Assembly (NCBI GenBank): GCA_965238005.1
Contig: OZ250165.1
Coordinates: 2,528,001-2,592,000, forward strand
Reading direction: 5' to 3'
Source: Longimicrobiales bacterium
GTDB lineage: Bacteria > Gemmatimonadota > Gemmatimonadetes > Longimicrobiales > Gaopeijiaceae
DNA: 64,000 bases
The position numbers were made by a program, and so were the translations under genes. The first letter of the stretch is position 1; every line of letters begins with the position of its first letter. This document shows positions 44,186 to 57,640 of this stretch, one piece after another. The notes below the pieces were generated by a model. The model had not been told where the DNA came from and did no database searches. It saw only the letters and a list, made by a program, of their open reading frames with translations.

Positions 44186-45585
44186 AACGCCGCGCGGGCT
44201 TGATACGGAACGCATTCGCAGGACACGAAAAGTATGCGCTCATCCTGGATCGGGAGGCTCGTCCGAAGGCTGTCGGCGGCAACCTAGTGGCGCGTCCGGA
44301 AATCGGCTAGGCCCTCTCCCAATACCTGCTATCTTCACGCCATGACCATGCGATGGGACCCGGTCCTCACGGCCGCGGTGGCGCGGGAGTTGGGTGACGC
44401 GCTCTCCGGTGAGCGGCTCAAGGCGATCTTCGTCGACCGCGGCGCCGGCACTCTCCACGCGTATTTTCGGCAGACCACCCTTCTCGCGGATCTCAACCCG
44501 TCACGAGTCGGCCTCGAGATCCTGGCCGCAGCCGAGCCTCCCGACGGAGCCAGGACTTTTCCGTGCCGCCTCTCCACAGTGGAGTCGCTCGCCGATGAGC
44601 GTATCCTCGTGCTCGCTCTGCCGAGGGTGCGGGGGCGCGGAGGGGACGTCAGGATCGTTCTGGAGCTGGTGCCGAACCGGGGGAACGCCACAGTCGTGGA
44701 GGGTGACGCGTGGACCGTCAGACACGTTCTGACCAACCGGCGCGGGGCCCGGGCGCCCCAGGTTGGGCGGACCTACCCCATGCCCGACCCGACCCGCCGG
44801 GGATTGGAAAGACCCCTGAGCTTCGACGAGTGGCTCGATCTGCTGGGGCCCGAAGAGCCGGAGGCGCGCCGGGCTGTGCTCCTCCGCAACGTGGCGCTCA
44901 CGTCCCCAATTAACGCTCCAGCCCTGCTCGGGAAGACCGTGGCAGACGGCGACGGCGCTGACGAGGCCAAGCTCGCGTCGGGTCACGAGCTCTGGATGCG
45001 CCTTCGGGAGATCGCGCTCGGTCCGTCCTCGCCCGTGGTCGGTGGCGAGGCACACGTGACGGAATGTCCATGGGGACCGCAGCCTTACCCCGTCTGCCTC
45101 CCCGGATACCCATGCCGGGTATCGCCGTCCCTGTTGGACGCGATTCGTGAAGTCAGAAGCACTGCGGGCACCACACCTGGCCTGATCCCGTCCGGGCTGA
45201 CCGGGGCGCTGGAGGACGCCCTCTCCCTCGCGCGCAAACGGACCCGCAAGCTCCGGCGAGAGCTCGAGAGCACGCCCGAGCCCGAACTGCTCAGGGTGAA
45301 GGGCGACCTGATCCTTGCCCATCTCCAACGGGTGCCAAAGGGAGCCTCCGAGGTGGCGCTCCCCGGCTTCGACGGCGAGGAGGTGCCGATCATCCTGGAT
45401 CCGGCCCTCCCCCCGCAGAAGAACGCGGCCCGGTACTACGACCGGGCCGGGCGGGCCCGGCGGGCGAGAGGGCAGCTTCCCGACCTGATCCGAGAGGGAG
45501 AGGAGAGGGAGGCGACGTTGGCGGAGCTGGAGTTGACCCGCTTTGGTGGACACCTCAGTAGTGAGGGAGACAGGAGGAGTCCACG

Positions 45586-45900
45586 ATGCCAAGAACACAT
45601 GCGCCGTACCCGCCGGAGTTTCGGCGGCAGATGGTCGAGTTGGTCAGGTCGGGCCGCTCCGTGGAGGAGCTGGCCCGGGAGTTCGAGCCCTCAAACGGGG
45701 CGATACGGAACTGGGTCAAACAAGCTGACTTGGATGAAGGCCGTCGCAGTGACGGGCTGACGACGGAGGAGCGTGGGGAACTCAGGCAGCTTCGGCGTGA
45801 CAACAAGCGTCTGCGCATGGAGCAGGAGATTCTAAAAAAAGCCGCCGCCTGGTTTGCTCGGGAGAGCAACTCGATCCCGGAACGGGGTTCGAGTTCATGA
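45586..45900 (+). CDS. IS3 transposase OrfA (HTH)
   Basis: YPPEFRRQMVELV, IRNWVKQ, EQEILKKAAAWFA; A7G slippery site at 45834-45841. Confidence 0.93.
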   Translation: MPRTHAPYPPEFRRQMVELVRSGRSVEELAREFEPSNGAIRNWVKQADLDEGRRSDGLTTEERGELRQLRRDNKRLRMEQEILKKAAAWFARESNSIPERGSSS

Positions 45901-46748
45901 AGACGAATCAGGCCGACTTCCCTGTGCGGGCGATGTGCCGTGTGCTGGATCTCTCCCCCAGCGGCTACTACGCCTGGTTGGATCGCGAGCCTTCGGCTCG
46001 GGCGAAGCGAGATGAGGAGCTCACAGAGCGGATCGAGACGGTCTGGCGCGAGAACCGAAGGGTCTATGGCCGGCCCCGCATCTACGCGGACCTCAAGGAA
46101 GCTGGCGAGCGGGTCGGTGAGAAGCGGGTGGGCCGGCTCATGAAGCAGGCCGAGATTGTGGGAGCTAGCCGGAGGCGGCGCGGCCCGAAGACGACCAGGC
46201 GCAACGAGGACGCCCGTCCCGCGCCGGATCTCATCGAGCGGGACTTCAGCGCAGACGGGCCAGACCAGTTGTGGGTGGCCGACATCACCTACATCCCGAC
46301 CTGGGCGGGGTTCTTGTACCTCGCGGTTGTGCTCGACGTCTGGAGCAGGCGGGTGGTCGGGTGGTCGATGGCTACGCACCTGCGCACCGAGCTCGTCCTG
46401 GACGCGCTGAACATGGCGACCTGGCAGCGCCGGCCCGAATGCGTCATCCATCACAGTGATCAGGGAACCCAGTACACCTCGATCGCCTTCGGCCTACGCT
46501 GCAACGATGTCGGTGTGCGGCCCTCGATGGGCTCCGTGGGCGACGCCTACGACAACGCGATGTGCGAGAGCTTCTTCGCGACGCTCGAGTGCGAGCTACT
46601 CGACCGGCAGCGCTTCCGGACCCAGGCCGAGGCGAAGATGGCCGTGTTCGACTTCATCGAGGGCTTCTACAACCCCCGGAGGCGACACTCGGCACTGGGT
46701 CAGCTGTCGCCCATCAACTTCGAGCGTCGCCACGGAGCGGCAGCATGA
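45897..46748 (+). CDS. IS3 transposase OrfB (DDE integrase core)
   Basis: WVADITYI, HHSDQGTQY, DNAMCESFFATLECE, YNPRRRHS. Confidence 0.95.
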   Translation: MKTNQADFPVRAMCRVLDLSPSGYYAWLDREPSARAKRDEELTERIETVWRENRRVYGRPRIYADLKEAGERVGEKRVGRLMKQAEIVGASRRRRGPKTTRRNEDARPAPDLIERDFSADGPDQLWVADITYIPTWAGFLYLAVVLDVWSRRVVGWSMATHLRTELVLDALNMATWQRRPECVIHHSDQGTQYTSIAFGLRCNDVGVRPSMGSVGDAYDNAMCESFFATLECELLDRQRFRTQAEAKMAVFDFIEGFYNPRRRHSALGQLSPINFERRHGAAA

Positions 46749-47402
46749 GAAACCTGCGTGGCCAAGTTGCCCTTTACTCCCCCGCTGCGCGGGGGAAGCT
46801 TTCCTCTCCCCAGCGAGGGGGACAGACTATAAACCTCAGTGTTCACCCGTCCACTGAAACGGGACAGCTCCAAGCTCATGGATCGAGTGGAGGCCAGAGA
46901 GGCTACCGCAGAAGAGATCCGTAACGTCCTGCTGGAGAGAGAGCTACGGGCTCGGACACCCCAGGGAGGGGCCGTCCCCGCCCTTCCCTACCGCGTCTAC
47001 CGGACGTCGGGAGGGTTGGAAGTCCGAGTCGGACGGGGATCGGCCTCCAACGACGATCTGACCTTCAGGCACTCCAGGCCCGACGACATCTGGCTCCACG
47101 CCCGCGACTCGGCCGGAGCTCACGTCATTCTGAGATGGGACGGAAAAGGCGCGCCGCCTGCCCGTGATCTTCACGCGGCGGCGGTGCCGGCGGCGGTGAA
47201 TTCGAAGGCCAGGACCTCGGGGAGCGTGCCGGTGGATTGGACGCACTGGAAGCACGTCCGAAAGCCCAGGAAGTCTCCGCCGGGGACGGTGGTCCCGGAC
47301 CGCGTGAAGACCCTCTTCGTGGAGCCCGACCTGACACTTCCCGACCGGCTCAGGGAAGGGTAGCCTCGTCAACCGGCTCGGGCAGGGGCTTCTCAGGGCG
47401 GC

Positions 47403-48215
47403 TCAGAGAGTGGCTTCGGAGCCTGCGTCCATGGCCCTGCGAAGCGACGCCAGGAAGGTGCTGGCCTCGGCGGGGCCCCCCCGGTCCAGCGCTTTGATCA
47501 GGGCGCTCCCCACCACGACGCCGTCTGCCACACCGGCCACCAGCGCCGCCTGCTCTGGCGTGGAGATACCGAAGCCCACGGCCACGGGCAGGTCCACCTC
47601 ACGCCGGAGGCTTCGAACCTCGGCGGCCAGGCCCTCGCTCAAGGTCTCTCGGGCGCCCGTCACTCCGGTCCGGGAGATGTAGTAGAGGAACCCCTGGCCG
47701 CTCTCGGCCACCACGGGAATGCGGTCGGGCTCGGTGGTGGGGGCGATGAGCCGGATCAGGTCCAGCGGCGAGTCGAGAATGGCCTCTTCCACCACGGGAT
47801 CGGCACCCGTGGGCACGTCCGTGAGAAGGATCCCCTGTGCCCCCGCCTCCACCGCATCCTCGAGGAAGGACTCCAGGCCGTACTGGAGTAGCGGGTTCAC
47901 GTAGCTGAAGAGCACGATGGGCGCGTCGGAGACGCCCCGGAATGCAGTGAGGACCTCGAGGGCACCCGCCACGGTCATGCCCCCCTCGAGAGCCTTGTGA
48001 GTGGACTCCTGGATGGTGGGCCCATCTGCCAGGGGGTCGCTGAAGGGGATTCCCAGCTCCAAAATGTCCCCGCCGGCCTCGGCGATGGCCGAGAGCACTT
48101 CCACACTGGCTTCCGACGAGGGGAAGCCGCACGTCACGTACGGCACCAGAGCGCTACGCCCTTCGCCCTGCCGCTCCGCGAACCGCTGTGAGACCCCCAC
48201 CCCTCCCGGGCTCAA
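47403..48215 (-). CDS. trpA: Tryptophan synthase alpha chain
   Basis: LELGIPFSDPLADGPTIQ, YISRTGVTG, VGFGIS, GVVVGSA. Start uncertain (48215 or 48194). Confidence 0.96.
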   Translation of the reverse strand: MSPGGVGVSQRFAERQGEGRSALVPYVTCGFPSSEASVEVLSAIAEAGGDILELGIPFSDPLADGPTIQESTHKALEGGMTVAGALEVLTAFRGVSDAPIVLFSYVNPLLQYGLESFLEDAVEAGAQGILLTDVPTGADPVVEEAILDSPLDLIRLIAPTTEPDRIPVVAESGQGFLYYISRTGVTGARETLSEGLAAEVRSLRREVDLPVAVGFGISTPEQAALVAGVADGVVVGSALIKALDRGGPAEASTFLASLRRAMDAGSEATL

Positions 48216-48239: not shown

Positions 48240-49649
48240 TCACATGATATAGTCGCTGACACGGATCCCGTACTTCTGGGCATTGGTGGTCTTGATGATG
48301 ACACGGCCATCGAGCGAGAGATCCACCTGCAGGGGCTCGGTAAGCGGAACGCCCATCTCGTCGGAGATGATCTTGACCATGGGCTGGTGGAGGTGGGCGA
48401 CGTCGGGGTTGGTCTTGGAGACGACCGCCAGCTCCAAGGTGTCGAGGATGACGAGGGTGCCCACCGGATAAACCCCGGTGGCGTTGATGAACGTCTTTAC
48501 GATCAGCTGATCGAAGCCGCGACGGGGGTTGTCCCGCATCTCCTTGAGGACCTCGTCAGGCGGCCAGGGCTCATACTGGTAGCTCCGCACCGACGTCCCC
48601 GCGTCGAACCCATCGGCCACGGCCACGATGCGCGAGAAGAGGCCCGGGTTCCGAGGGCGTGTATTCTCGGGGTACCCGCTCAGGTCGATCTTCATGTGAT
48701 GCTCGTAGGCCATGAGCATCTGGCGGTACGGCACGTCGGCGAAGCCGTGCATCTCGAAGAGGAGGATGAGCCCCTCCGTGGGATGCTCCTTCATAGCCTC
48801 CCACTCTTCGTCGGTGAGCCCGCCGGCTTTGTTGATGACCTCCCTGTCGATGCTCATCTTGCCGATGTCGTGAAAGAGCGCGCCGAGGCCGAGCTCGTAG
48901 AGCTGGATCTTGGTGAGGCCCAGCCGCTGCCCGATGACCACGCTGAATATGCAGACGTTCACCGAGTGGGTGAACGTGTACTCGTCGAAGCCACGCAGGG
49001 TCGTCATGGTCACCATGGACGACTCATTGTCCAGCACCTGATCCACGATTCCCTGCACCGCCTTCTTGACCTTCCGGACGTTCACGGCCTTGCCGAGACG
49101 CATGTCGGTGAGCACGTCCTTGGCGACCTTGATCGACTGGGCATAGGTCCCCTTGGCAGCCGCCATAGCGTCTCGCTCAATCAGCTCCGGCGCCCGGGCC
49201 TCCGATTCGGGTTGGACCTGGATGTGCTCCACGGGCGTGTGTGAAAGGCGCTCGACGAACGCCTGGAAGGGCTCTGCTTCCCTGGGATCCCGGAGGAGGA
49301 CGGAGATGAAGGGTGCCCACTCGGACCGCTCCACGTTGGCGTCGATGGCAACCTGGCCGATCCCATGCCCGGTCAGGGCCGATGAGAGGCTCCCGAAGGT
49401 GGAGAAGTTCGAGAGGTCGAGGCGGAGCCTCGTCTCGTTCATGAAGAAGAAGTCACCCACCAGTTGGAGCTCGAGTCCGCCCTCGTGCTTGAAGAACTCG
49501 ATCATCTGCCCGTGGAGGTGGTCGATGGCCTTCTGGACCTGCTGGTTCTGCAACGGATAGAGCTTCAGGGATCGGAGGGCCACGTAGAACGCCGTGAGGA
49601 GCCGACTTCCGAGCTCCTGGACGACTCCGGCATCGTCGAGCGGGCTCAC
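48240..49649 (-). CDS. HD-GYP domain protein (putative cyclic-dinucleotide phosphodiesterase)
   Basis: DEYTFTHSVNV, LFHDIGK, EHPTEG, HHMKIDLSGYP, RIVAVAD.FDA.TS.R.Y and C-terminal GVYPVGTLV. Confidence 0.9.
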   Translation of the reverse strand: MSPLDDAGVVQELGSRLLTAFYVALRSLKLYPLQNQQVQKAIDHLHGQMIEFFKHEGGLELQLVGDFFFMNETRLRLDLSNFSTFGSLSSALTGHGIGQVAIDANVERSEWAPFISVLLRDPREAEPFQAFVERLSHTPVEHIQVQPESEARAPELIERDAMAAAKGTYAQSIKVAKDVLTDMRLGKAVNVRKVKKAVQGIVDQVLDNESSMVTMTTLRGFDEYTFTHSVNVCIFSVVIGQRLGLTKIQLYELGLGALFHDIGKMSIDREVINKAGGLTDEEWEAMKEHPTEGLILLFEMHGFADVPYRQMLMAYEHHMKIDLSGYPENTRPRNPGLFSRIVAVADGFDAGTSVRSYQYEPWPPDEVLKEMRDNPRRGFDQLIVKTFINATGVYPVGTLVILDTLELAVVSKTNPDVAHLHQPMVKIISDEMGVPLTEPLQVDLSLDGRVIIKTTNAQKYGIRVSDYIM

Positions 49650-51406
49650 TCGGGCTCCCCCGCCCCCTGGATGGCCTTGCGCACGGCGGTACGGACCACG
49701 GCGTCCCTGTCGTTCTCCGCGGTCGCGAGAGCCTTCTGGGCCTTGGGCATACGGATCTTGCCCAACGCCCGGGCCGCGGACGCCCGGATCTCCGGGGGCT
49801 CCTTGCGGGTGAGAAGGCCCTTCTTGTTCAGGAGCTTGTCGAGGACGTCGACGGCCCCGGCCCCGCCGAGCATGCCGTAGCTCTCGAAGACGGCGATCTT
49901 CTCGGTGAGGTCGGCCTGTCGAATCTCCTTGCCCGTGACCACCGCCTTTAAGGCCGGGGCGGCGTTCGTGTACTGCATCCCTGCCAGCGCCCGAGCAGCC
50001 CCGACCCGGACGTCAGGATCCGAGTCCGTGAGTGCGTTGATCAGTCCCGGAGCCGCGCCGCTGGCACCGAGCGTCCGGGCCGCCTCTACGCTGGCGAGCC
50101 GCGCGGCGCCGTCGGGATGGCTCATGAGCCTCACCAGCTTGGGAGCGGCGTCCGACAGGCCCATCTGGCCCACCAGGCGCGCGGCCGCAGCTGCGATCAC
50201 GGCGTTCTCGTCGTCCAGGAGCGCGACCAACGCCTCGCGGTTCTCGTCGGCGATGCCGCGCACGGCCCGGCGCAGCATCTCCTGGAGCCCCTGCTCCTCC
50301 ACTTTCTCGGAAGCGTGGAGGAGGATCGGCAAGGCGCCGGAACGGAGGAACTTGAGGAGCCGGTCCAGAACCTCCACGGGGATGTCGATGGTGCCGTCCT
50401 GAAGGGCGCGAACGAGCTCCTCGATGGTCTCGGGTGAAGAGAGATCGTCCATGAGGGCGTCGCACTCCTGCTGCCGCAGCTGGTCCAGCCCCCCCGGCCT
50501 GGCCCGAGTGGCGGACAGCTGCTCCAGGATGTCGGCGGCAGCGGCCACCGCGCCACGACTCAGGAAGTTCGGCAGCAGGTCCCGGAAGATCTTCAGGATC
50601 CCCGACTGGCGCTCCGCCTGCTCCGGGTCCTCCAACCTGTCGAAGAGGGCGGCGAGGACGTCCCCTCGGAGGTCCCTCGACATCTCGGCTTCGAGCTCGT
50701 TCTTGAGCAGCTCCTTCTCCCCGGAATCCAGAGCGTATAGGGTGGGCATGAAGTCGTCCCGCCCGAGCTTCGGCGGCGGTGTCTCTTTCTTGGGAGCCTC
50801 CCCGGTCTCGGCCGAGGCACTCTCCTCTGACTCTACCTCCTCCTGGAGCACACCCGCCAGCTCGGGGCGATCTTCCTCGGGGCGCGCCTCGGGGACCTCG
50901 ACGCCGTCCGTGAGCTGGTCCACGTAATAGTACTTGAAGAAGTCCAGATCCTCTTCCCAGAGGATGGTGAGGAGGTCGTCGCCCTCGGTGGCTTTCAACG
51001 TCTTGGCCCTCTTGAGAAGGCTCAGAAGACGCTCGAGCTCCTGCCCCTCGATGCCCGGGAGGAACGTCACATCCCGGACGCCGTCCTTGTAGAAGAGGAA
51101 GGAGAGGGAATCGGAGCGGGAATCGCTGCGGTAGACCTCCTCGCCGGCCAGCGCGAAACGGTCTTCCTCAACCGAGACGTTGAGACCCTCGATCTCCTGC
51201 CAGAGGCCCTCGAACGCCTCCCGTAGGGTCGTTACGAAGCGCTTGTAAACCGGGTTGTTTTCGTCGTAGAGCTGATAGGCCCGCAGCGCCTTGCCGAGAG
51301 TGATGAACAACTCCCGGACCTGGTCGAGGGGGAGTTCCTCGACGTCTGACCACTCGGCAGAGCCGCCGTCGCCCTGATCGGAAATATCGACGGGGGTATC
51401 GGTCAA
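49646..51406 (-). CDS. HEAT-repeat protein with an uncharacterised N-terminal domain
   Basis: C-terminal repeats such as LTDSDPDVRVGAARALA and EIRASAARALGKI; stop overlaps the HD-GYP start (GTGA). Confidence 0.85.
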   Translation of the reverse strand: MTDTPVDISDQGDGGSAEWSDVEELPLDQVRELFITLGKALRAYQLYDENNPVYKRFVTTLREAFEGLWQEIEGLNVSVEEDRFALAGEEVYRSDSRSDSLSFLFYKDGVRDVTFLPGIEGQELERLLSLLKRAKTLKATEGDDLLTILWEEDLDFFKYYYVDQLTDGVEVPEARPEEDRPELAGVLQEEVESEESASAETGEAPKKETPPPKLGRDDFMPTLYALDSGEKELLKNELEAEMSRDLRGDVLAALFDRLEDPEQAERQSGILKIFRDLLPNFLSRGAVAAAADILEQLSATRARPGGLDQLRQQECDALMDDLSSPETIEELVRALQDGTIDIPVEVLDRLLKFLRSGALPILLHASEKVEEQGLQEMLRRAVRGIADENREALVALLDDENAVIAAAAARLVGQMGLSDAAPKLVRLMSHPDGAARLASVEAARTLGASGAAPGLINALTDSDPDVRVGAARALAGMQYTNAAPALKAVVTGKEIRQADLTEKIAVFESYGMLGGAGAVDVLDKLLNKKGLLTRKEPPEIRASAARALGKIRMPKAQKALATAENDRDAVVRTAVRKAIQGAGEPE

Positions 51407-51418
51407 TGGTCTCTCGCT

Positions 51419-52629
<1,211 letters not shown>

Positions 52630-52633
<4 letters not shown>

Positions 52634-53304
52634 CGCTGCCCCGTATCCGGGATGGGAGCGTCCGTCATCCGGGCGTTCCTCACGAACGCCCGGATCAGGT
52701 CATGATCCTTGCGTCGAGGCGAGAGCTCAACGCCCGAGCTGACGTCGACCACGTCCGGAGAGAGGACCCGCACCGCCTGCTCGACATTGTCGGGAGTGAG
52801 GCCTCCGGCCGCGATCAGCCTGACCCCCGGCGGGAAGGCACCCCTCACGGAGGAGAAGTCCTCCCAGGTGAAGGAGACGCCACCACCACCGGGACGCTCA
52901 GGGTGCCAGGCGTCCAGGAGCACGCCGTCCACGGAGGTCCCGAACTCATTCAGGGCTCGGATCACGTCGTCGGGCTCTCGCACTCTCACGGCCTTCCAGA
53001 TCGCCCAATCGCCCCGGCTGCGCAACTCCTGGACGAACGCCGGGCTCTCCTCCCCGTGAAGCTGGATCACCGAAGCGCCCACCAGTTCTGCGATACGCTG
53101 GGCCTCATCGACGGACTCGTCCACCAGCACCGCGACCACGGGCGTATCGACGGCGAGCCCGATGTCCACAGCCTGGTCGGGCATGAGGCTTCTGCCGAAG
53201 CCCTGTGAGAGGATCATGCCGAGATAGCTCGCTCCCAACTCCTCGGCGGCGCGGGCGTCCTCCACGGAGCAGAGCCCACAGATCTTGACCCGCACGTCAC
53301 CCAT
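52630..53304 (-). CDS. trpF: Phosphoribosylanthranilate isomerase
   Basis: [30 protein letters not shown]. Confidence 0.95.
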
Positions 53305-54106
53305 GGCCCCGGCCCCTCCGCACCTCTCCCGCAAGGGCCGAGACGCCCGCGCCCGGATCGCTCTGGCGCAGAAGCGACTCCCCGACCAACACGGCATCGA
53401 CGCCCTTGTCCCCCAGCAAGCGTACGTCTTCCCGGGTGCGGATGCCGCTTTCCGAGACCAGGACCACGTCCGGGGGAATCCGGTCCAGGAGGCCGAGCGT
53501 CACCTCCAGCCGGGTCTCGAAGGTCCTGAGATTCCGGTTGTTCACCCCGATCAGTCGAGCGCCGGCCGCCACACCTCGATCCACTTCCTCGCCGTCGTGC
53601 GCCTCGACCAGGACCGTCATTCCCAGCTCCTCAGCCAACTGGCGCAAAGAGCGCATTCGGGCGTCGTCCAGGATCCGCACGATGAGCAAAATCGCATCCG
53701 CTCCCGCGGCCCGAGCCTCGTAGATCTGGGACTCGTCGATGAGGAAGTCCTTCCGAAGCACGGGAAGGCCCACGAGTCCTCCAGCAACGCTCAGGTCCTC
53801 GAGGGAGCCTCCGAAGTAGTCCCGATCCGTCAGGACGCTGAGGGCCGCAGCTCCGCCCGCTTCGTAGGTCGAAGCCAGCTGCAGGGGGTCCAGATCGGGA
53901 CGGATGGGTCCGGCCCCAGGCGATCGCCTCTTGATCTCCGCGATCACCGCGACGGATTCGCCGCCACTCAGGGCACCGAGGAAGTCCCGGGCGGGCTCGG
54001 CGCTCTCAGCGGCCGCTCGGAGCTCCGCCACGCGATCTCTGAGCCCCTCCACCTCGTGCCGCTTGGTCTCCACGATCCGCCCGAGGATGTCCGTCGCAGG
54101 GCTCAT
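53297..54106 (-). CDS. trpC: Indole-3-glycerol phosphate synthase
   Basis: IAEIKRRSP, LSVLTD..YFGGS, LRKDF, IGVNNRNL, SESGI. Confidence 0.96.
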   Translation of the reverse strand: MSPATDILGRIVETKRHEVEGLRDRVAELRAAAESAEPARDFLGALSGGESVAVIAEIKRRSPGAGPIRPDLDPLQLASTYEAGGAAALSVLTDRDYFGGSLEDLSVAGGLVGLPVLRKDFLIDESQIYEARAAGADAILLIVRILDDARMRSLRQLAEELGMTVLVEAHDGEEVDRGVAAGARLIGVNNRNLRTFETRLEVTLGLLDRIPPDVVLVSESGIRTREDVRLLGDKGVDAVLVGESLLRQSDPGAGVSALAGEVRRGRGHG

Positions 54107-54151
54107 CGTCGTGCCCACGGGCGCACCACACCCCATGATCCCTGAACAACC

Positions 54152-54200
54152 TTGCGTTTCGGGCAACGTTCGGGTATCGTGTGTTCGGGTCCTATTCGGG
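54152..54200 (+). promoter_or_regulatory. lexA sigma70 promoter overlapped by candidate direct-repeat LexA boxes
   Basis: TTGCGT(54152)-N17-TATCGT(54175); TTTC-N7-GTTC at 54157-54171 and GTTC-N7-ATTC at 54183-54197; TTCGGG occurs four times. Confidence 0.6.
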
Positions 54201-54225
54201 TTCCATCGATACGGAGGCGGACACG

Positions 54226-54834
54226 ATGCCCCTGACGAAGCGACAAAAGGAGATCCTCGTTCATATTGAGAGTTTCATCGACGAGCACGGATACGCCCCC
54301 AGCTTCGAGGAGATCGCCGCCGCCTTCGGGTACTCCTCCCTCGCCACGGTGCATGAGCACCTCAGCAATCTGGAGCGCAAGGGCTACATCCGGAAGGCCT
54401 ACAACGAGAGCCGGTCCATCGAGCTGGTGGGGCACGCGTCCTTGTCCGGCTCGGTGGAACTACCTCTCTTCGGAGCGGTGGCGGCCGGGCTTCCCATCGA
54501 GGCCATCGAGCAACAAGAGACCTTGGCCGTCCCGCCGGACATGGTGCGGGCCGGCAGTGAGAACTTCGTGCTCCGGGTCGAAGGCGAATCCATGATCGAT
54601 GAGCAGATCCGTGACGGCGACTACATCGTCGTCAACTCGCAGGACACGGCCGACGACGGGCAGATGGTCGTGGCGCTCGTGGGCGGTGACTCGGCGACAG
54701 TCAAGAAGCTCTATCGCGAGAGCGACGGCCGCATTCGGCTGCAGCCGGCCAACCCTACCATGCCACCCATCTTGGAGCATCCCGACAACGTCCAGATTCA
54801 GGGCGTCGTCGTGGGCGTCATCCGCAAGTACTAG
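54226..54834 (+). CDS. lexA: SOS repressor LexA
   Basis: LTKRQKEIL, GYAPSFEEIA, VAAGLP (Ala-Gly cleavage site), GESM (Ser), TVKK (Lys). Confidence 0.96.
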   Translation: MPLTKRQKEILVHIESFIDEHGYAPSFEEIAAAFGYSSLATVHEHLSNLERKGYIRKAYNESRSIELVGHASLSGSVELPLFGAVAAGLPIEAIEQQETLAVPPDMVRAGSENFVLRVEGESMIDEQIRDGDYIVVNSQDTADDGQMVVALVGGDSATVKKLYRESDGRIRLQPANPTMPPILEHPDNVQIQGVVVGVIRKY

Positions 54835-54858
54835 TGTTCTTTGGTAACGGGACCCTAG

Positions 54859-56460
54859 GAGTCTGCGCCGCAGAAGCACAGCTGACTGAGCCGAATGGTC
54901 ATCGAGCCGTCCGCGGCGAGGCGGATCCGGGTGATTGGGAGGTTGAGGACTTGTGTCTGCGACGGATCGGGAGAGCGGAATGGATGCGTTGGGGGGGGCA
55001 AGAGAGCTACGAGAGCCCTCGCGCCGGCAGATGCGGGTGAACCCTCGTGCAGTCATGCCGCCTGAAGGGTGTGCAGCCGCTTCACATTGAGTGCCAGGCA
55101 CACGAGGGTCCACTCGGCCCGGACCTTCTCGAGGCCCCGGAAGCTGAATCGTCGAAAGCCCATCACTTCCTTGATCCAGCCGATGGGCGCCTCGGCCTGC
55201 GACTTTCGCCGTGCGTAGCGTCTGCGGCCATCTTCGCTCGCCAGCTTCTCCGCCATGCGGACTTTCGCCGGATATTCCTCCTTGTCAACCGTGGGGGCGG
55301 CCTTGCCCTCCCGGGCCAGCGCCACATACCCGTCGATGTCTCGCTCTTCCAGTTCCTCGAGATCCCGCTCGTTGCAATAGCCCGTGTCCGCCAGCACCTG
55401 CGCCGGCGTCTCGCCGTACGCTTGCGCCACCGCGTCGACCATGGGCACCAGCTGGCCCTGGTCGCTCGCGTTGTCCGTCACCTCGGCCCCGACCACCAGC
55501 TGGTTCTCCCCCTCCACGACCGTCTGTGCGTTGTAGCACTGCTGGAACCCCTCCGAACTCGTCTTCATGATCCGGCTCTCAGGGTCCGTGAAGTTGCTCT
55601 GCGCCGCCTCGTCCGGCTCTCCGTACTCCCGCTTGTAGGGCCTGCCGCCCTTCGGGTTGCGCGTCTGCCCCGGCTTGCGGCCCCGTGCGTCGTCCGCCGC
55701 TCTCTGCTCGGCTTCCAGGCGCGCCTTCGCCTCCCGGATCGCCGCCAGCCGGTCCTCGCGCCGCTTGAGCTCCTCCGGCACCTCGTCTCCGCATGCTTCC
55801 TCGCCGTAGCGCTCGTCTTCCGCTTCGTCCACCGCCTCGGCCCTCTCCAACAGCCCCCGGATCTCCGCCTCCAGCCGAGGCTCCCCGGTCACCATCCGGC
55901 CGTAGCTCATCGCCTTGCGCTTGTTCGCGTTCGCCCGAACCTTCGTCCCGTCCACCGACACCCTGCCAAGCCCCGCCAGCCCCAAGGCCCGCGCGAGCAT
56001 CACCACCTCCACAAACACCGCCCGGAAATCCCCGAGATGGCGCTTGCGGAACTCGCACAGCGTCCGGTGCTTCGGGAAGTTCTCCGCCGCCAGCATCCGA
56101 AACGCGACATCCTCCTCCAGCTTCCTCGCCATCTTCCGCGACGAGAAGGTGCCCGTCGCATACGCGTAGATCAGCACCTTGACCATCATCCGAGGGTCGT
56201 ACGGCGAGTTGCGCCGCCCGTCCCCCCGGTACCGCCCGTAGAACGCGCTCAGCTCCACCGCGTCCACCAGGTCGCTCACATGGTGCGCCAAATGACCCTC
56301 CGACACCCACTCCCGAAGATCCGGAGGCAGCAACAACATCTGCTCCGGATCGTACGGTCGAAATGTCGTTCCCATTCACCCCCCTCGGTGATCCGCAAGC
56401 CTTCCCAATGCCTTCGCTACCACCAAAGATAGCCGCCGCAGGGTTCTGCGGCGCAGACTC
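54859..56460 (-). mobile_element. IS1182-family insertion sequence, 1602 bp, CTAG target duplication
   Basis: Perfect 17-bp terminal inverted repeats GAGTCTGCGCCGCAGAA (54859-54875, 56444-56460); CTAG at 54855-54858 and 56461-56464. Confidence 0.93.
55053..56375 (-). CDS. IS1182-family transposase
   Basis: YDPRMMVKVLIYAY..G.FSSR, VDGTKVRANA, NFTDPESRIMK, YNAQ, LADTGY, MGFRRFSFRG. Confidence 0.93.
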   Translation of the reverse strand: MGTTFRPYDPEQMLLLPPDLREWVSEGHLAHHVSDLVDAVELSAFYGRYRGDGRRNSPYDPRMMVKVLIYAYATGTFSSRKMARKLEEDVAFRMLAAENFPKHRTLCEFRKRHLGDFRAVFVEVVMLARALGLAGLGRVSVDGTKVRANANKRKAMSYGRMVTGEPRLEAEIRGLLERAEAVDEAEDERYGEEACGDEVPEELKRREDRLAAIREAKARLEAEQRAADDARGRKPGQTRNPKGGRPYKREYGEPDEAAQSNFTDPESRIMKTSSEGFQQCYNAQTVVEGENQLVVGAEVTDNASDQGQLVPMVDAVAQAYGETPAQVLADTGYCNERDLEELEERDIDGYVALAREGKAAPTVDKEEYPAKVRMAEKLASEDGRRRYARRKSQAEAPIGWIKEVMGFRRFSFRGLEKVRAEWTLVCLALNVKRLHTLQAA

Positions 56461-57516
56461 CTAGGGCGCACGCGTAGCCGCTCGTAGCAAGTCCAGGGCT
56501 TCCAGAGCCCTGCCGTTGTCGAGGGCCTCCGTGGCCGCGTCGATGCTCTCCTCCAGCGTGTCGGCAGCACCCGACACGTAAATAGCCGCCCCCGCGTTCA
56601 GCAGCACGGCCGACCTGGCGCCTCCCTGCTCGTCTCCCTGAAGCACCGCCATTATGACCTGGGCGTTCTCCTCGGGCTCGCCTCCCGCCAACTCTTCGGC
56701 CGAGCAGAGCTCCATGCCGAAGTCCTCGGGTCTCACCGTACGCTCGCTCACCGACCCGTCCACCAGCTCGGCCACCCGCGTTGGGCCCATGGGACTGAGC
56801 TCGTCCAGCCCGGGCTCTCCGTGCACCACCAGCGCGCGGGTATGGCCCAGCTCCCGGAGCGACTCTACCACGAGCGTTACCAGGGACGGATCCGCCACGC
56901 CCACCAGCTGTCTGCCGACCCGGGCGGGGTTCGTGAGGGGTCCCAGGATGTTCATCACGGTGGGAAAGCCGAGCTCCCTGCGGACCGGCCCCACGTGCCG
57001 CATGGCCGGGTGGAGGAGAGGGGCGAACATGAAGACCAGCCCGACCTCCTTCAGGACCAGGGCCATTTCTTCGGGGGTCAGCTCGATGCGTACCCCTAAC
57101 GCCTCGAGAACGTCGGCACTTCCGCTCCGGGACGTGAAGGAGCGATTCCCGTGCTTCGCGACGCGAGCCCCTGCCCCGCAGGCCACGAGAGCGGCGGCTG
57201 TGGAGATGTTGAAGGTGGTGACGGCCCCACCCCCCGTTCCGCAAGTGTCTATGAGCTGGTCCGTCGCTTCCGAGGCCACCTCAACCATGGCCTTGCGGAG
57301 GGCTCGCACGCCACCTGCCACCTCCACCGGGATCACGCCCTTCACTCGAAGCGCGGTGAGAATCGAGGACATCTGCACCGCAGAGGCGCTTCCCTCCATG
57401 AAGACGTCGAACGAGAACTCGGCCTCGGCGGCGGTGAGGTGCTCCCCTCCGGCGAGCTTGTAAAGGACGTCTCGGAGGTCTGAAGGCGGTGACGATCGAG
57501 GGGAGCTCTGGCTCAT
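56461..57516 (-). CDS. trpD: Anthranilate phosphoribosyltransferase
   Basis: DTCGTGG, FNIST, AKHGNRS.TS.SGSADVLE, NILGPLTNP, GLDE. Confidence 0.96.
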   Translation of the reverse strand: MSQSSPRSSPPSDLRDVLYKLAGGEHLTAAEAEFSFDVFMEGSASAVQMSSILTALRVKGVIPVEVAGGVRALRKAMVEVASEATDQLIDTCGTGGGAVTTFNISTAAALVACGAGARVAKHGNRSFTSRSGSADVLEALGVRIELTPEEMALVLKEVGLVFMFAPLLHPAMRHVGPVRRELGFPTVMNILGPLTNPARVGRQLVGVADPSLVTLVVESLRELGHTRALVVHGEPGLDELSPMGPTRVAELVDGSVSERTVRPEDFGMELCSAEELAGGEPEENAQVIMAVLQGDEQGGARSAVLLNAGAAIYVSGAADTLEESIDAATEALDNGRALEALDLLRAATRAP

Positions 57517-57640
57517 TCGAGATGGCGTTCCGTGGACGAAATCCCGTGCCGGAGGGCACGATTTCCCCGGCAGAATACAGCTACAATTCAACCTTCCGGG
57601 CATCGCTTGACAACAGTTGCGGCCTTTCTACCTTCCGGGC

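Follow-up and report, generated by a model that had tools for sequence, protein, structure and literature searches.

A conserved HEAT-repeat and HD-GYP gene pair sharing an uncatalogued N-terminal domain in a Gemmatimonadota tryptophan operon

A gene for a HEAT-repeat protein and a gene for an HD-GYP protein lie between trpB and trpA in a Longimicrobiales bacterium (Gemmatimonadota; GenBank assembly GCA_965238005.1), within a 64,000-nucleotide stretch of contig OZ250165.1 (positions 2,528,001 to 2,592,000) that is referred to here as the window and numbered from its first letter. On the minus strand, the gene order is trpC, trpF, trpB, HEAT gene, HD-GYP gene and trpA. The gap between trpB and the HEAT gene is 12 bp, and the HEAT stop codon overlaps the HD-GYP start codon as GTGA; this coupling, the gap and the gene coordinates (Table 1) had been given in a first-pass annotation made from the letters alone, and all are reproduced by open reading frame (ORF) calls. 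The HEAT protein consists of an N-terminal domain that it shares with the enzyme, followed by an acidic linker, a helical middle region and HEAT repeats, which score 93.8 bits with HEAT_2 against a cut-off of 27.7. The two genes form an undescribed, conserved and real module, combining a known enzyme class, an uncatalogued domain and a dedicated partner protein. A literature search, mostly outside subscription papers, found no description of either the pair or the shared domain, and the terms "HEAT", "Gemmatimonad" and "Nitrospir" are absent from the text of Galperin and Chou (10.1101/2021.11.05.467447), tables and supplement aside.

Table 1. Features of the HEAT/HD-GYP module and its neighbours in the window
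Feature	Coordinates	Strand	Remarks
HEAT-repeat protein gene, 586 amino acids, TTG start	49646..51406	-	Pfam HEAT_2 E 8e-27
Shared uncatalogued domain, HEAT copy, residues 25-165	50912..51334	-	hhalign; model predicted local distance difference test (pLDDT) 95
HEAT/ARM-like repeats, about residues 364-584	49655..50317	-	
HD-GYP protein gene, 469 amino acids, GTG start, GGAG just upstream	48240..49649	-	
Shared uncatalogued domain, HD-GYP copy, residues 8-150	49200..49628	-	hhalign; AlphaFold model
Two long helices and linker, residues 155-220	48990..49187	-	structural overlap with Bd1817, starting at residue 80 of the latter
HD-GYP catalytic domain, residues 221-391	48477..48989	-	H228, H260, D261, H289, H317, H318, D346; third-metal Glu replaced by Y224
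R355-S-Y-Q358 (RxxQ at the PmGH R314/K317 position)	48576..48587	-	alignment to 4MCW
C-terminal small beta-barrel, putatively SH3/KOW-like, residues 392-469	48243..48476	-	VIA-align 5ycq Z 6.7, root-mean-square deviation (rmsd) 3.3, 70 aligned
trpB	51419..52633	-	TIGR00263; upstream neighbour, context outside module
trpA	47403..48215	-	TIGR00262; downstream neighbour, context outside module
Two TTCGG-N6-TTCGG direct repeats, 54158-54173 and 54184-54199	54158..54199	+	between trpC start and lexA
lexA, divergent from trpC	54226..54834	+	ATG 54226

The N-terminal domains of the two proteins are paralogous. A direct BLASTP comparison of the proteins yields 26% over 98 amino acids at E 0.16, which is not significant. 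Comparison of the two N-terminal family profiles with hhalign (152 aligned sequences each, before gap filtering) gives a probability of 96.5 and an E value of 7.1e-10 over 100 columns, versus 0.1-0.5 for six control segments of equal length drawn from the same two families, so that a homology first proposed by eye over about 100 amino acids is substantiated. In a joint alignment, the shared unit lengthens to about 140 amino acids. AlphaFold models the HEAT copy with a pLDDT of 95 and a predicted template modelling score of 0.88; the HD-GYP copy, taken from a full-length model based on a separate alignment, has block means of 66-96 over residues 11-150. Both models have an α/β topology with the element order H-H-E-E-(E)-H-E-H-H-E, a comparison of secondary-structure order only, with no superposition. 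The copies have in common a YPxxN/YxxxNP motif and a glycine ahead of strand 4. Otherwise conserved in the HEAT copy are YxxxNP, KDGxR and DDxxTxxW, with residues D108, G109, D144 and W150, and in the HD-GYP copy R26, N35, G65, N71, R74, R76 and G98. These differing sets of conserved residues are suggestive, but only suggestive, of the two faces of a heterodimer.

That the domain has no name, as the first-pass annotation had also said, is borne out by sequence and fold searches. No Pfam or NCBIfam family is matched by more than 2 of 45 domain members at E 0.1, the named sensor domains REC, PAS, GAF and Cache included. Among PDB sequences there is nothing convincing, the best match (E 0.005) being a designed protein. 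With the domain model as query, neither PDB nor BFVD yields a Foldseek match at E 0.001 (best in PDB, E 1.1), and VIA-align reaches at best Z 4.7, with none of 48,161 chains at Z of at least 5. The lack of a named family or solved relative would still leave a new fold unproven. Searches of the ESM Atlas provide leads only. The domain retrieves just unnamed clusters (scores 0.89-0.91), from Thermodesulfobacteriota and Gemmatimonadota, and the whole enzyme retrieves HD clusters of Nitrospirota, Zixibacteria and Planctomycetota. The joint domain profile matches 7,285 representatives (clusters at 50% identity) at E 0.001 and 2,700 at 1e-10, and the best 150 of the 7,285 are nearly all Gemmatimonadota-like. 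In Nitrospinota-like HEAT proteins (P0244, P0392 and P0393), the shared domain occurs as a tandem duplicate at the N-terminus; a scan of the named genomes with P0244 gave no match.

The two proteins are consistently found together. The genome containing the window has exactly four copies of the domain, which make up two pairs of HEAT gene followed by HD-GYP gene; the second pair (C1:4242472-4245647) has no trp gene in the 20 kb fetched around it. Among 201 genomes of the phylum (here and in the GGDEF and Hypr counts below, including one unpublished genome, G157), each protein occurs in 149, with identical tallies by family. An HD-GYP match lies directly downstream of 145 of the 149 HEAT matches among those listed, G157 excluded; five HEAT and three HD-GYP matches lie beyond those listed. 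Three of the four exceptions are at or near a contig end, and the fourth is in genome G145. For a Nitrospirota-type alignment, 184 stretches were confirmed in named genomes and 80 were kept, of which 77 have the HEAT gene followed by the HD-GYP gene and the other three are cut by the end of the locus. The two-protein module proposed from the window alone thus shows conserved adjacency in both phyla, and in both the stop and start codons overlap or abut. A distant subfamily, with an RxxR enzyme that lacks the C-terminal barrel, is also paired in three places (twice in genome G204 and once in G116).

In a quick IQ-TREE search, the HEAT copies of both phyla are split from the HD-GYP copies with a Shimodaira-Hasegawa-like approximate likelihood ratio support of 100; the tree covers 66 of 102 domain rows, with half of the Nitrospirota rows and no fragments. 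Domain copies cluster by carrier protein, not by phylum, and the duplication is therefore older than the spread of the module. An apparent fusion of the two proteins (P0354) was set aside; its sequence resembles the two genes run together through a frameshift.

The Nitrospirota-type pairs lie downstream of tatB-tatC. In 71 of the 80 loci, a 92-amino acid protein with no Pfam match is encoded between tatC and the HEAT gene (for example, L069:705-983); it was considered as a third core component and rejected, having no homologue in the genome containing the window (best E 6.3). In 25 of the 80 loci, the HD-GYP gene faces a convergent gene for a small Ras/Arf-type GTPase, which we take to be MglA-like (for example, L071:9052-10200, minus strand).

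The location of the pair in a trp operon had suggested co-expression with tryptophan synthesis, and it might be supposed that the module is a functional part of that operon, sensing or signaling tryptophan or indole. Gene order lends this some appeal. Among 40 loci hand-picked across families from 150 listed matches, 24 have the order trpB-HEAT-HD-GYP-trpA and one is cut after the HEAT/HD-GYP pair, and of the 30 best-scoring loci, 24 have trpB immediately upstream. Against it, 11 of the 40 place the pair next to lexA and lack trp genes (four more have other contexts), and trpA, trpB, trpC and trpF are absent, over up to 6 kb, from all 80 Nitrospirota-type loci. For the 11 trp-free loci, trpA is found elsewhere in seven genomes, and in four nothing exceeds the cut-off. 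Conversely, of the 33 genomes in the pair-less class, 19 were tested; 18 of these have trpA, directly preceded by trpB in 14 of the 18. The pair occurs without trp genes and trp genes occur without the pair; the link is positional, an inherited gene order in Gemmatimonadota and not a requirement. The earlier functional tie to tryptophan synthesis is accordingly unsupported, and a tryptophan or indole signaling role appears very improbable.

The enzyme model is recognizably that of an HD-GYP protein, and all of its top Foldseek and VIA-align matches are HD-GYP structures. In 75 aligned paired orthologues (40 Gemmatimonadota and 35 Nitrospirota rows), H228, H260, D261, H289, H317 and H318 are invariant, and position 346 is D in 72 and E in three. 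The metal ligands are thus intact with respect to the motif H...HD...H...HH...D given for HD-GYP domains in the review PMC8177086. G325, Y326, P327 and K274 (K235 in PmGH) are likewise kept in all 75. The variant HHMKIDLSGYP, singled out in the first-pass annotation, proves real and family-wide: the full consensus HHExh(D/N)GxGYP is absent, and the glycine after D/N is kept in one of 75 sequences. In Foldseek, the full model is closest to PmGH (PDB 4MCW; E 5.5e-6), a trinuclear GAF-HD-GYP protein. It has in common with the module's enzyme the seven metal ligands, K235, GYP and R314, and differs at K317 (Q or S here), in having a GAF domain at its N-terminus, and at E185, which is non-Glu in all 75 rows and Tyr in 72. 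Because no glutamate occupies this last position, a two-metal site is expected. At the other end of the protein, middling fold matches suggest that the C-terminal barrel may be of the SH3/KOW type.

A second solved relative is Bd1817 (3TM8), on residues 80-308 of which model residues 156-394 superpose (VIA-align Z 15.0, rmsd 3.2, 195 aligned). The likeness to the Bd1817 family, which includes PA4108 and VC2497, lies in the long helices entering a dinuclear-type HD-GYP domain. It was not seen to extend to the N-terminus: residues 1-150 form a larger α/β domain that is unaligned to the N-terminal strands of Bd1817, the alignment with 3TM8, which has a four-strand N-terminal domain, begins at model residue 156, and 3TM8 is absent from the rows retrieved with the model of the N-terminal domain. 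DUF3391 (PF11871), found almost only fused to HD-GYP domains according to the text of Galperin and Chou, scores 24.5 bits against a cut-off of 27.8 (residues 92-193, profile positions 43-135) and matches none of the 45 domain rows. Also unlike Bd1817, the enzyme has intact metal ligands and GYP, an extra C-terminal barrel, and a second gene product bearing the same domain.

This comparison bears on the possibility that the HD-GYP protein is catalytically weak or silent and acts as a cyclic-dinucleotide receptor, with its output passing through the HEAT scaffold. The changes from HHE to HHM/L and from DG to DL are family-wide, and Bd1817, the closest solved fold, is inactive on cyclic di-GMP (c-di-GMP) according to the review PMC8177086. 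Set against this, the metal ligands are all retained in both phyla, as are GYP, K274 and R355, in contrast to Bd1817, and we consider a silent receptor improbable.

If the enzyme is active, its substrate is likely c-di-GMP, with 3',3'-cGAMP (cyclic GMP-AMP) or dual specificity ranked second, judging from genome content and the residues around the base-selecting RxxK position. The pair is restricted to genomes that encode GGDEF domains. At E 1e-15, GGDEF is detected in 175 of the 201 genomes, including all 149 that carry the pair, and none of the 26 GGDEF-less genomes, which belong to two families (f1 and f7), has it; this distribution points to a GGDEF-made substrate. The f1 and f7 lineages appear to have lost c-di-GMP signaling, and retain a c-di-AMP cyclase where tested. 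The latter compound is disfavored as a substrate, since the DAC cyclase is retained in 19 of 19 pair-less genomes tested and no HD-GYP activity on c-di-AMP is reported in the text of Galperin and Chou. At the base-selecting position, 32 of 35 Nitrospirota sequences are RxxS, as is the paralogous pair of the window's own genome. Passages in Galperin and Chou describe both RxxS and RxxR as compatible with c-di-GMP, and cite a personal communication of an RxxS enzyme that still cleaves it.

It may instead be that, within the same module, the Gemmatimonadota enzyme prefers or also cleaves cGAMP, a specificity predicted from its RxxQ sequence. R355 and Q358 align with R314 and K317 of PmGH, and the sequence carries the Rxx(Q/N) signature, with Q in 35 and N in one of the 40 Gemmatimonadota rows. 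The guanine-binding motif RxY(K/R) is absent, the sequence reading RSYQ, with K or R in two of 40 Gemmatimonadota and one of 35 Nitrospirota rows. According to portions of Wright et al. (10.1101/600031), Q selects cGAMP in PmxA and the Q518R substitution turned that enzyme to c-di-GMP; five of six Rxx(Q/N) candidates cleaved cGAMP, three of them selectively, and just 4.69% of HD-GYP domains have Q or N at the specificity position. RxxQ is indeed common to the cGAMP-selective enzymes PmxA of Myxococcus xanthus, Bd2325 and Gmet_3476 and to the enzyme of the window. In contrast to those enzymes, there is here no Cache, transmembrane or HAMP input, no Hypr cyclase is evident in the phylum, and the Nitrospirota orthologues, like the second pair in the same genome, are RxxS. 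The Hypr-type (Ser/Thr) cyclase pattern, whose frame fits nine of ten of the genome's own GGDEF domains, occurs in four of the 201 genomes. The one Ser-type domain in the genome itself (G000:C1:357348-357818, L034) is Ser/GGEEF, a combination given as inactive in the text of Hallberg et al. (PMC6456294). A search of the genome for the c-di-GMP-I/GEMM riboswitch gave no match, which is uninformative, since its control was likewise silent. On balance, a cGAMP preference is a tentative alternative that deserves to be taken seriously, if clearly behind c-di-GMP.

Two further features of the genome touch on cyclic nucleotides. Another of its GGDEF domains (C1:3970509) has Asn at the Hypr position, and there are three SMODS-family nucleotidyltransferase matches (C1:3917504-3919354 and 807233-807613), two of them adjacent, that possibly belong to a cyclic oligonucleotide-based antiphage signaling system (CBASS).

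Taken as a whole, the pair may work as a module of its own, with the HEAT protein binding the HD-GYP protein through the paralogous N-terminal domains and tuning a predicted two-metal phosphodiesterase, probably of c-di-GMP; we hold this reading, which we prefer, at about even confidence. An ancient duplication would have provided each partner with one copy of the domain, and the copies would have specialized, with acidic and aromatic residues (D108, D144 and W150) in the HEAT copy versus basic ones (R26, R74 and R76) in the enzyme. The two copies might then dock on each other. As the N-terminal domain of the enzyme is predicted to run into Bd1817-type helices leading toward the active site, docking could set dimer geometry and activity, and the docked HEAT protein would position or switch the phosphodiesterase. 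The HEAT repeats may offer a further interaction surface, used for an input or for placement in the cell. Helices preceding the active site are described in the text of Galperin and Chou as the usual control route in HD-GYP proteins. Of the earlier interpretation, this model keeps the paralogous unnamed domain and the conserved module and does without the unsupported functional tryptophan tie; the RxxQ sequence, the second pair and the lexA promoter discussed below had been overlooked. A comparable known arrangement is the RpfC/RpfG two-component system, in which a co-encoded protein acts through the N-terminal domain of an HD-GYP enzyme to set its activity and contacts. The proposed likeness is this control of the N-terminal domain by a co-encoded partner; here there is neither REC domain nor kinase, and the HEAT partner bears a paralogue of the enzyme's own N-terminal domain.

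Several observations weigh against the docking model or parts of it. The Glu of HHE is replaced in all 75 sequences, position 319 being M, L or I in 74 and never E. Both domain copies are net acidic, with medians of about -7 and -3, so that charge complementarity is local at best. The RxxQ of Gemmatimonadota, in PmxA, favors cGAMP over c-di-GMP. The joint loss of the pair and GGDEF is seen in just two lineages (f1 and f7), where signaling genes may be disappearing generally, and 26 genomes have GGDEF and lack the pair. Finally, HEAT-type copies at three loci (L187, L209 and L213, the last two short) have no visible HD-GYP neighbour. Such copies would be more readily accommodated if the N-terminal domains sensed the same ligand or bound the same third partner, placing the two proteins in one pathway and not in contact. 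Homologous domains often have a common ligand, and the YPxxN/YxxxNP motif and the glycine before strand 4 are found in both copies. The conserved residues mostly differ between the copies, though, which fits two surfaces better than one pocket, and the overlapping or abutting codons in both phyla fit a stoichiometric complex. Parallel sensing is thus possible, and in our judgment unlikely.

Upstream of the trp genes, the divergent lexA gene is preceded by two TTCGG-N6-TTCGG direct repeats that overlie a TTGC...TA..T promoter. The exact motif occurs in all 36 lexA upstream regions compared, in two copies in 31, versus a mean of 0.005 for shuffled controls and 0-2 for other spacers. In the genome containing the window, it is also found before genes that we take, from their sequences, to be gyrA, a radical-SAM gene and recA (one mismatch), and was not found before those presumed to be uvrA or ruvB. 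The genome has 41 exact sites, which is no excess over some other spacers, and many are near mobile elements. The motif is a good candidate for the LexA operator of the phylum; a literature search found no paper on a Gemmatimonadota LexA binding motif. Because 6 to about 50 bases separate the start of trpC from the first repeat, the trpC-F-B-HEAT-HD-GYP-trpA unit, including the pair, may share LexA control. The lexA/trpC layout could mean that the two genes share a divergent promoter, or that transcription reads through lexA. In Gemmatimonadota trp loci, lexA is on the opposite strand between trpD and trpC (53297-57603 in the window), and the start codon of trpC often lies directly against the -35 box of lexA. 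A more ambitious picture would combine a new heterodimerising fold, an obligate HEAT regulatory subunit, a Gemmatimonadota cGAMP switch and SOS wiring through the lexA promoter; that all of these hold together is doubtful.

The surroundings of the operon include mobile elements. A transposase-like ORF lies between lexA and trpD (55053-56375), at a very high contig depth that suggests many copies. An NFACT (RqcH-like) gene at 44342-47363 is interrupted by an IS3-type element (about 45586-46748), which is absent from a metatranscriptome contig (run X5) that links 45524 to 46873. One metatranscriptome run, with 5% of words present and short contigs only, is uninformative on co-transcription.

The N-terminal regions of most HD-GYP proteins are unassigned, as noted in the text of Galperin and Chou. 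The domain described here belongs to a large family, has a confident model without a solved match, and comes with a dedicated partner that bears the same domain. The module offers a direct test case for the scaffold control of second-messenger breakdown in little-studied phyla, and the Q, S and R variants at a single position provide a natural series in which to compare selectivity for c-di-GMP and for cGAMP. A cGAMP preference, if true of about three quarters of the sampled Gemmatimonadota, would suggest an unrecognised synthase. Should the more ambitious picture be correct, it would mean a mode of HD-GYP control undescribed for the class, and phylum-wide cGAMP signaling from an unrecognised type of synthase.

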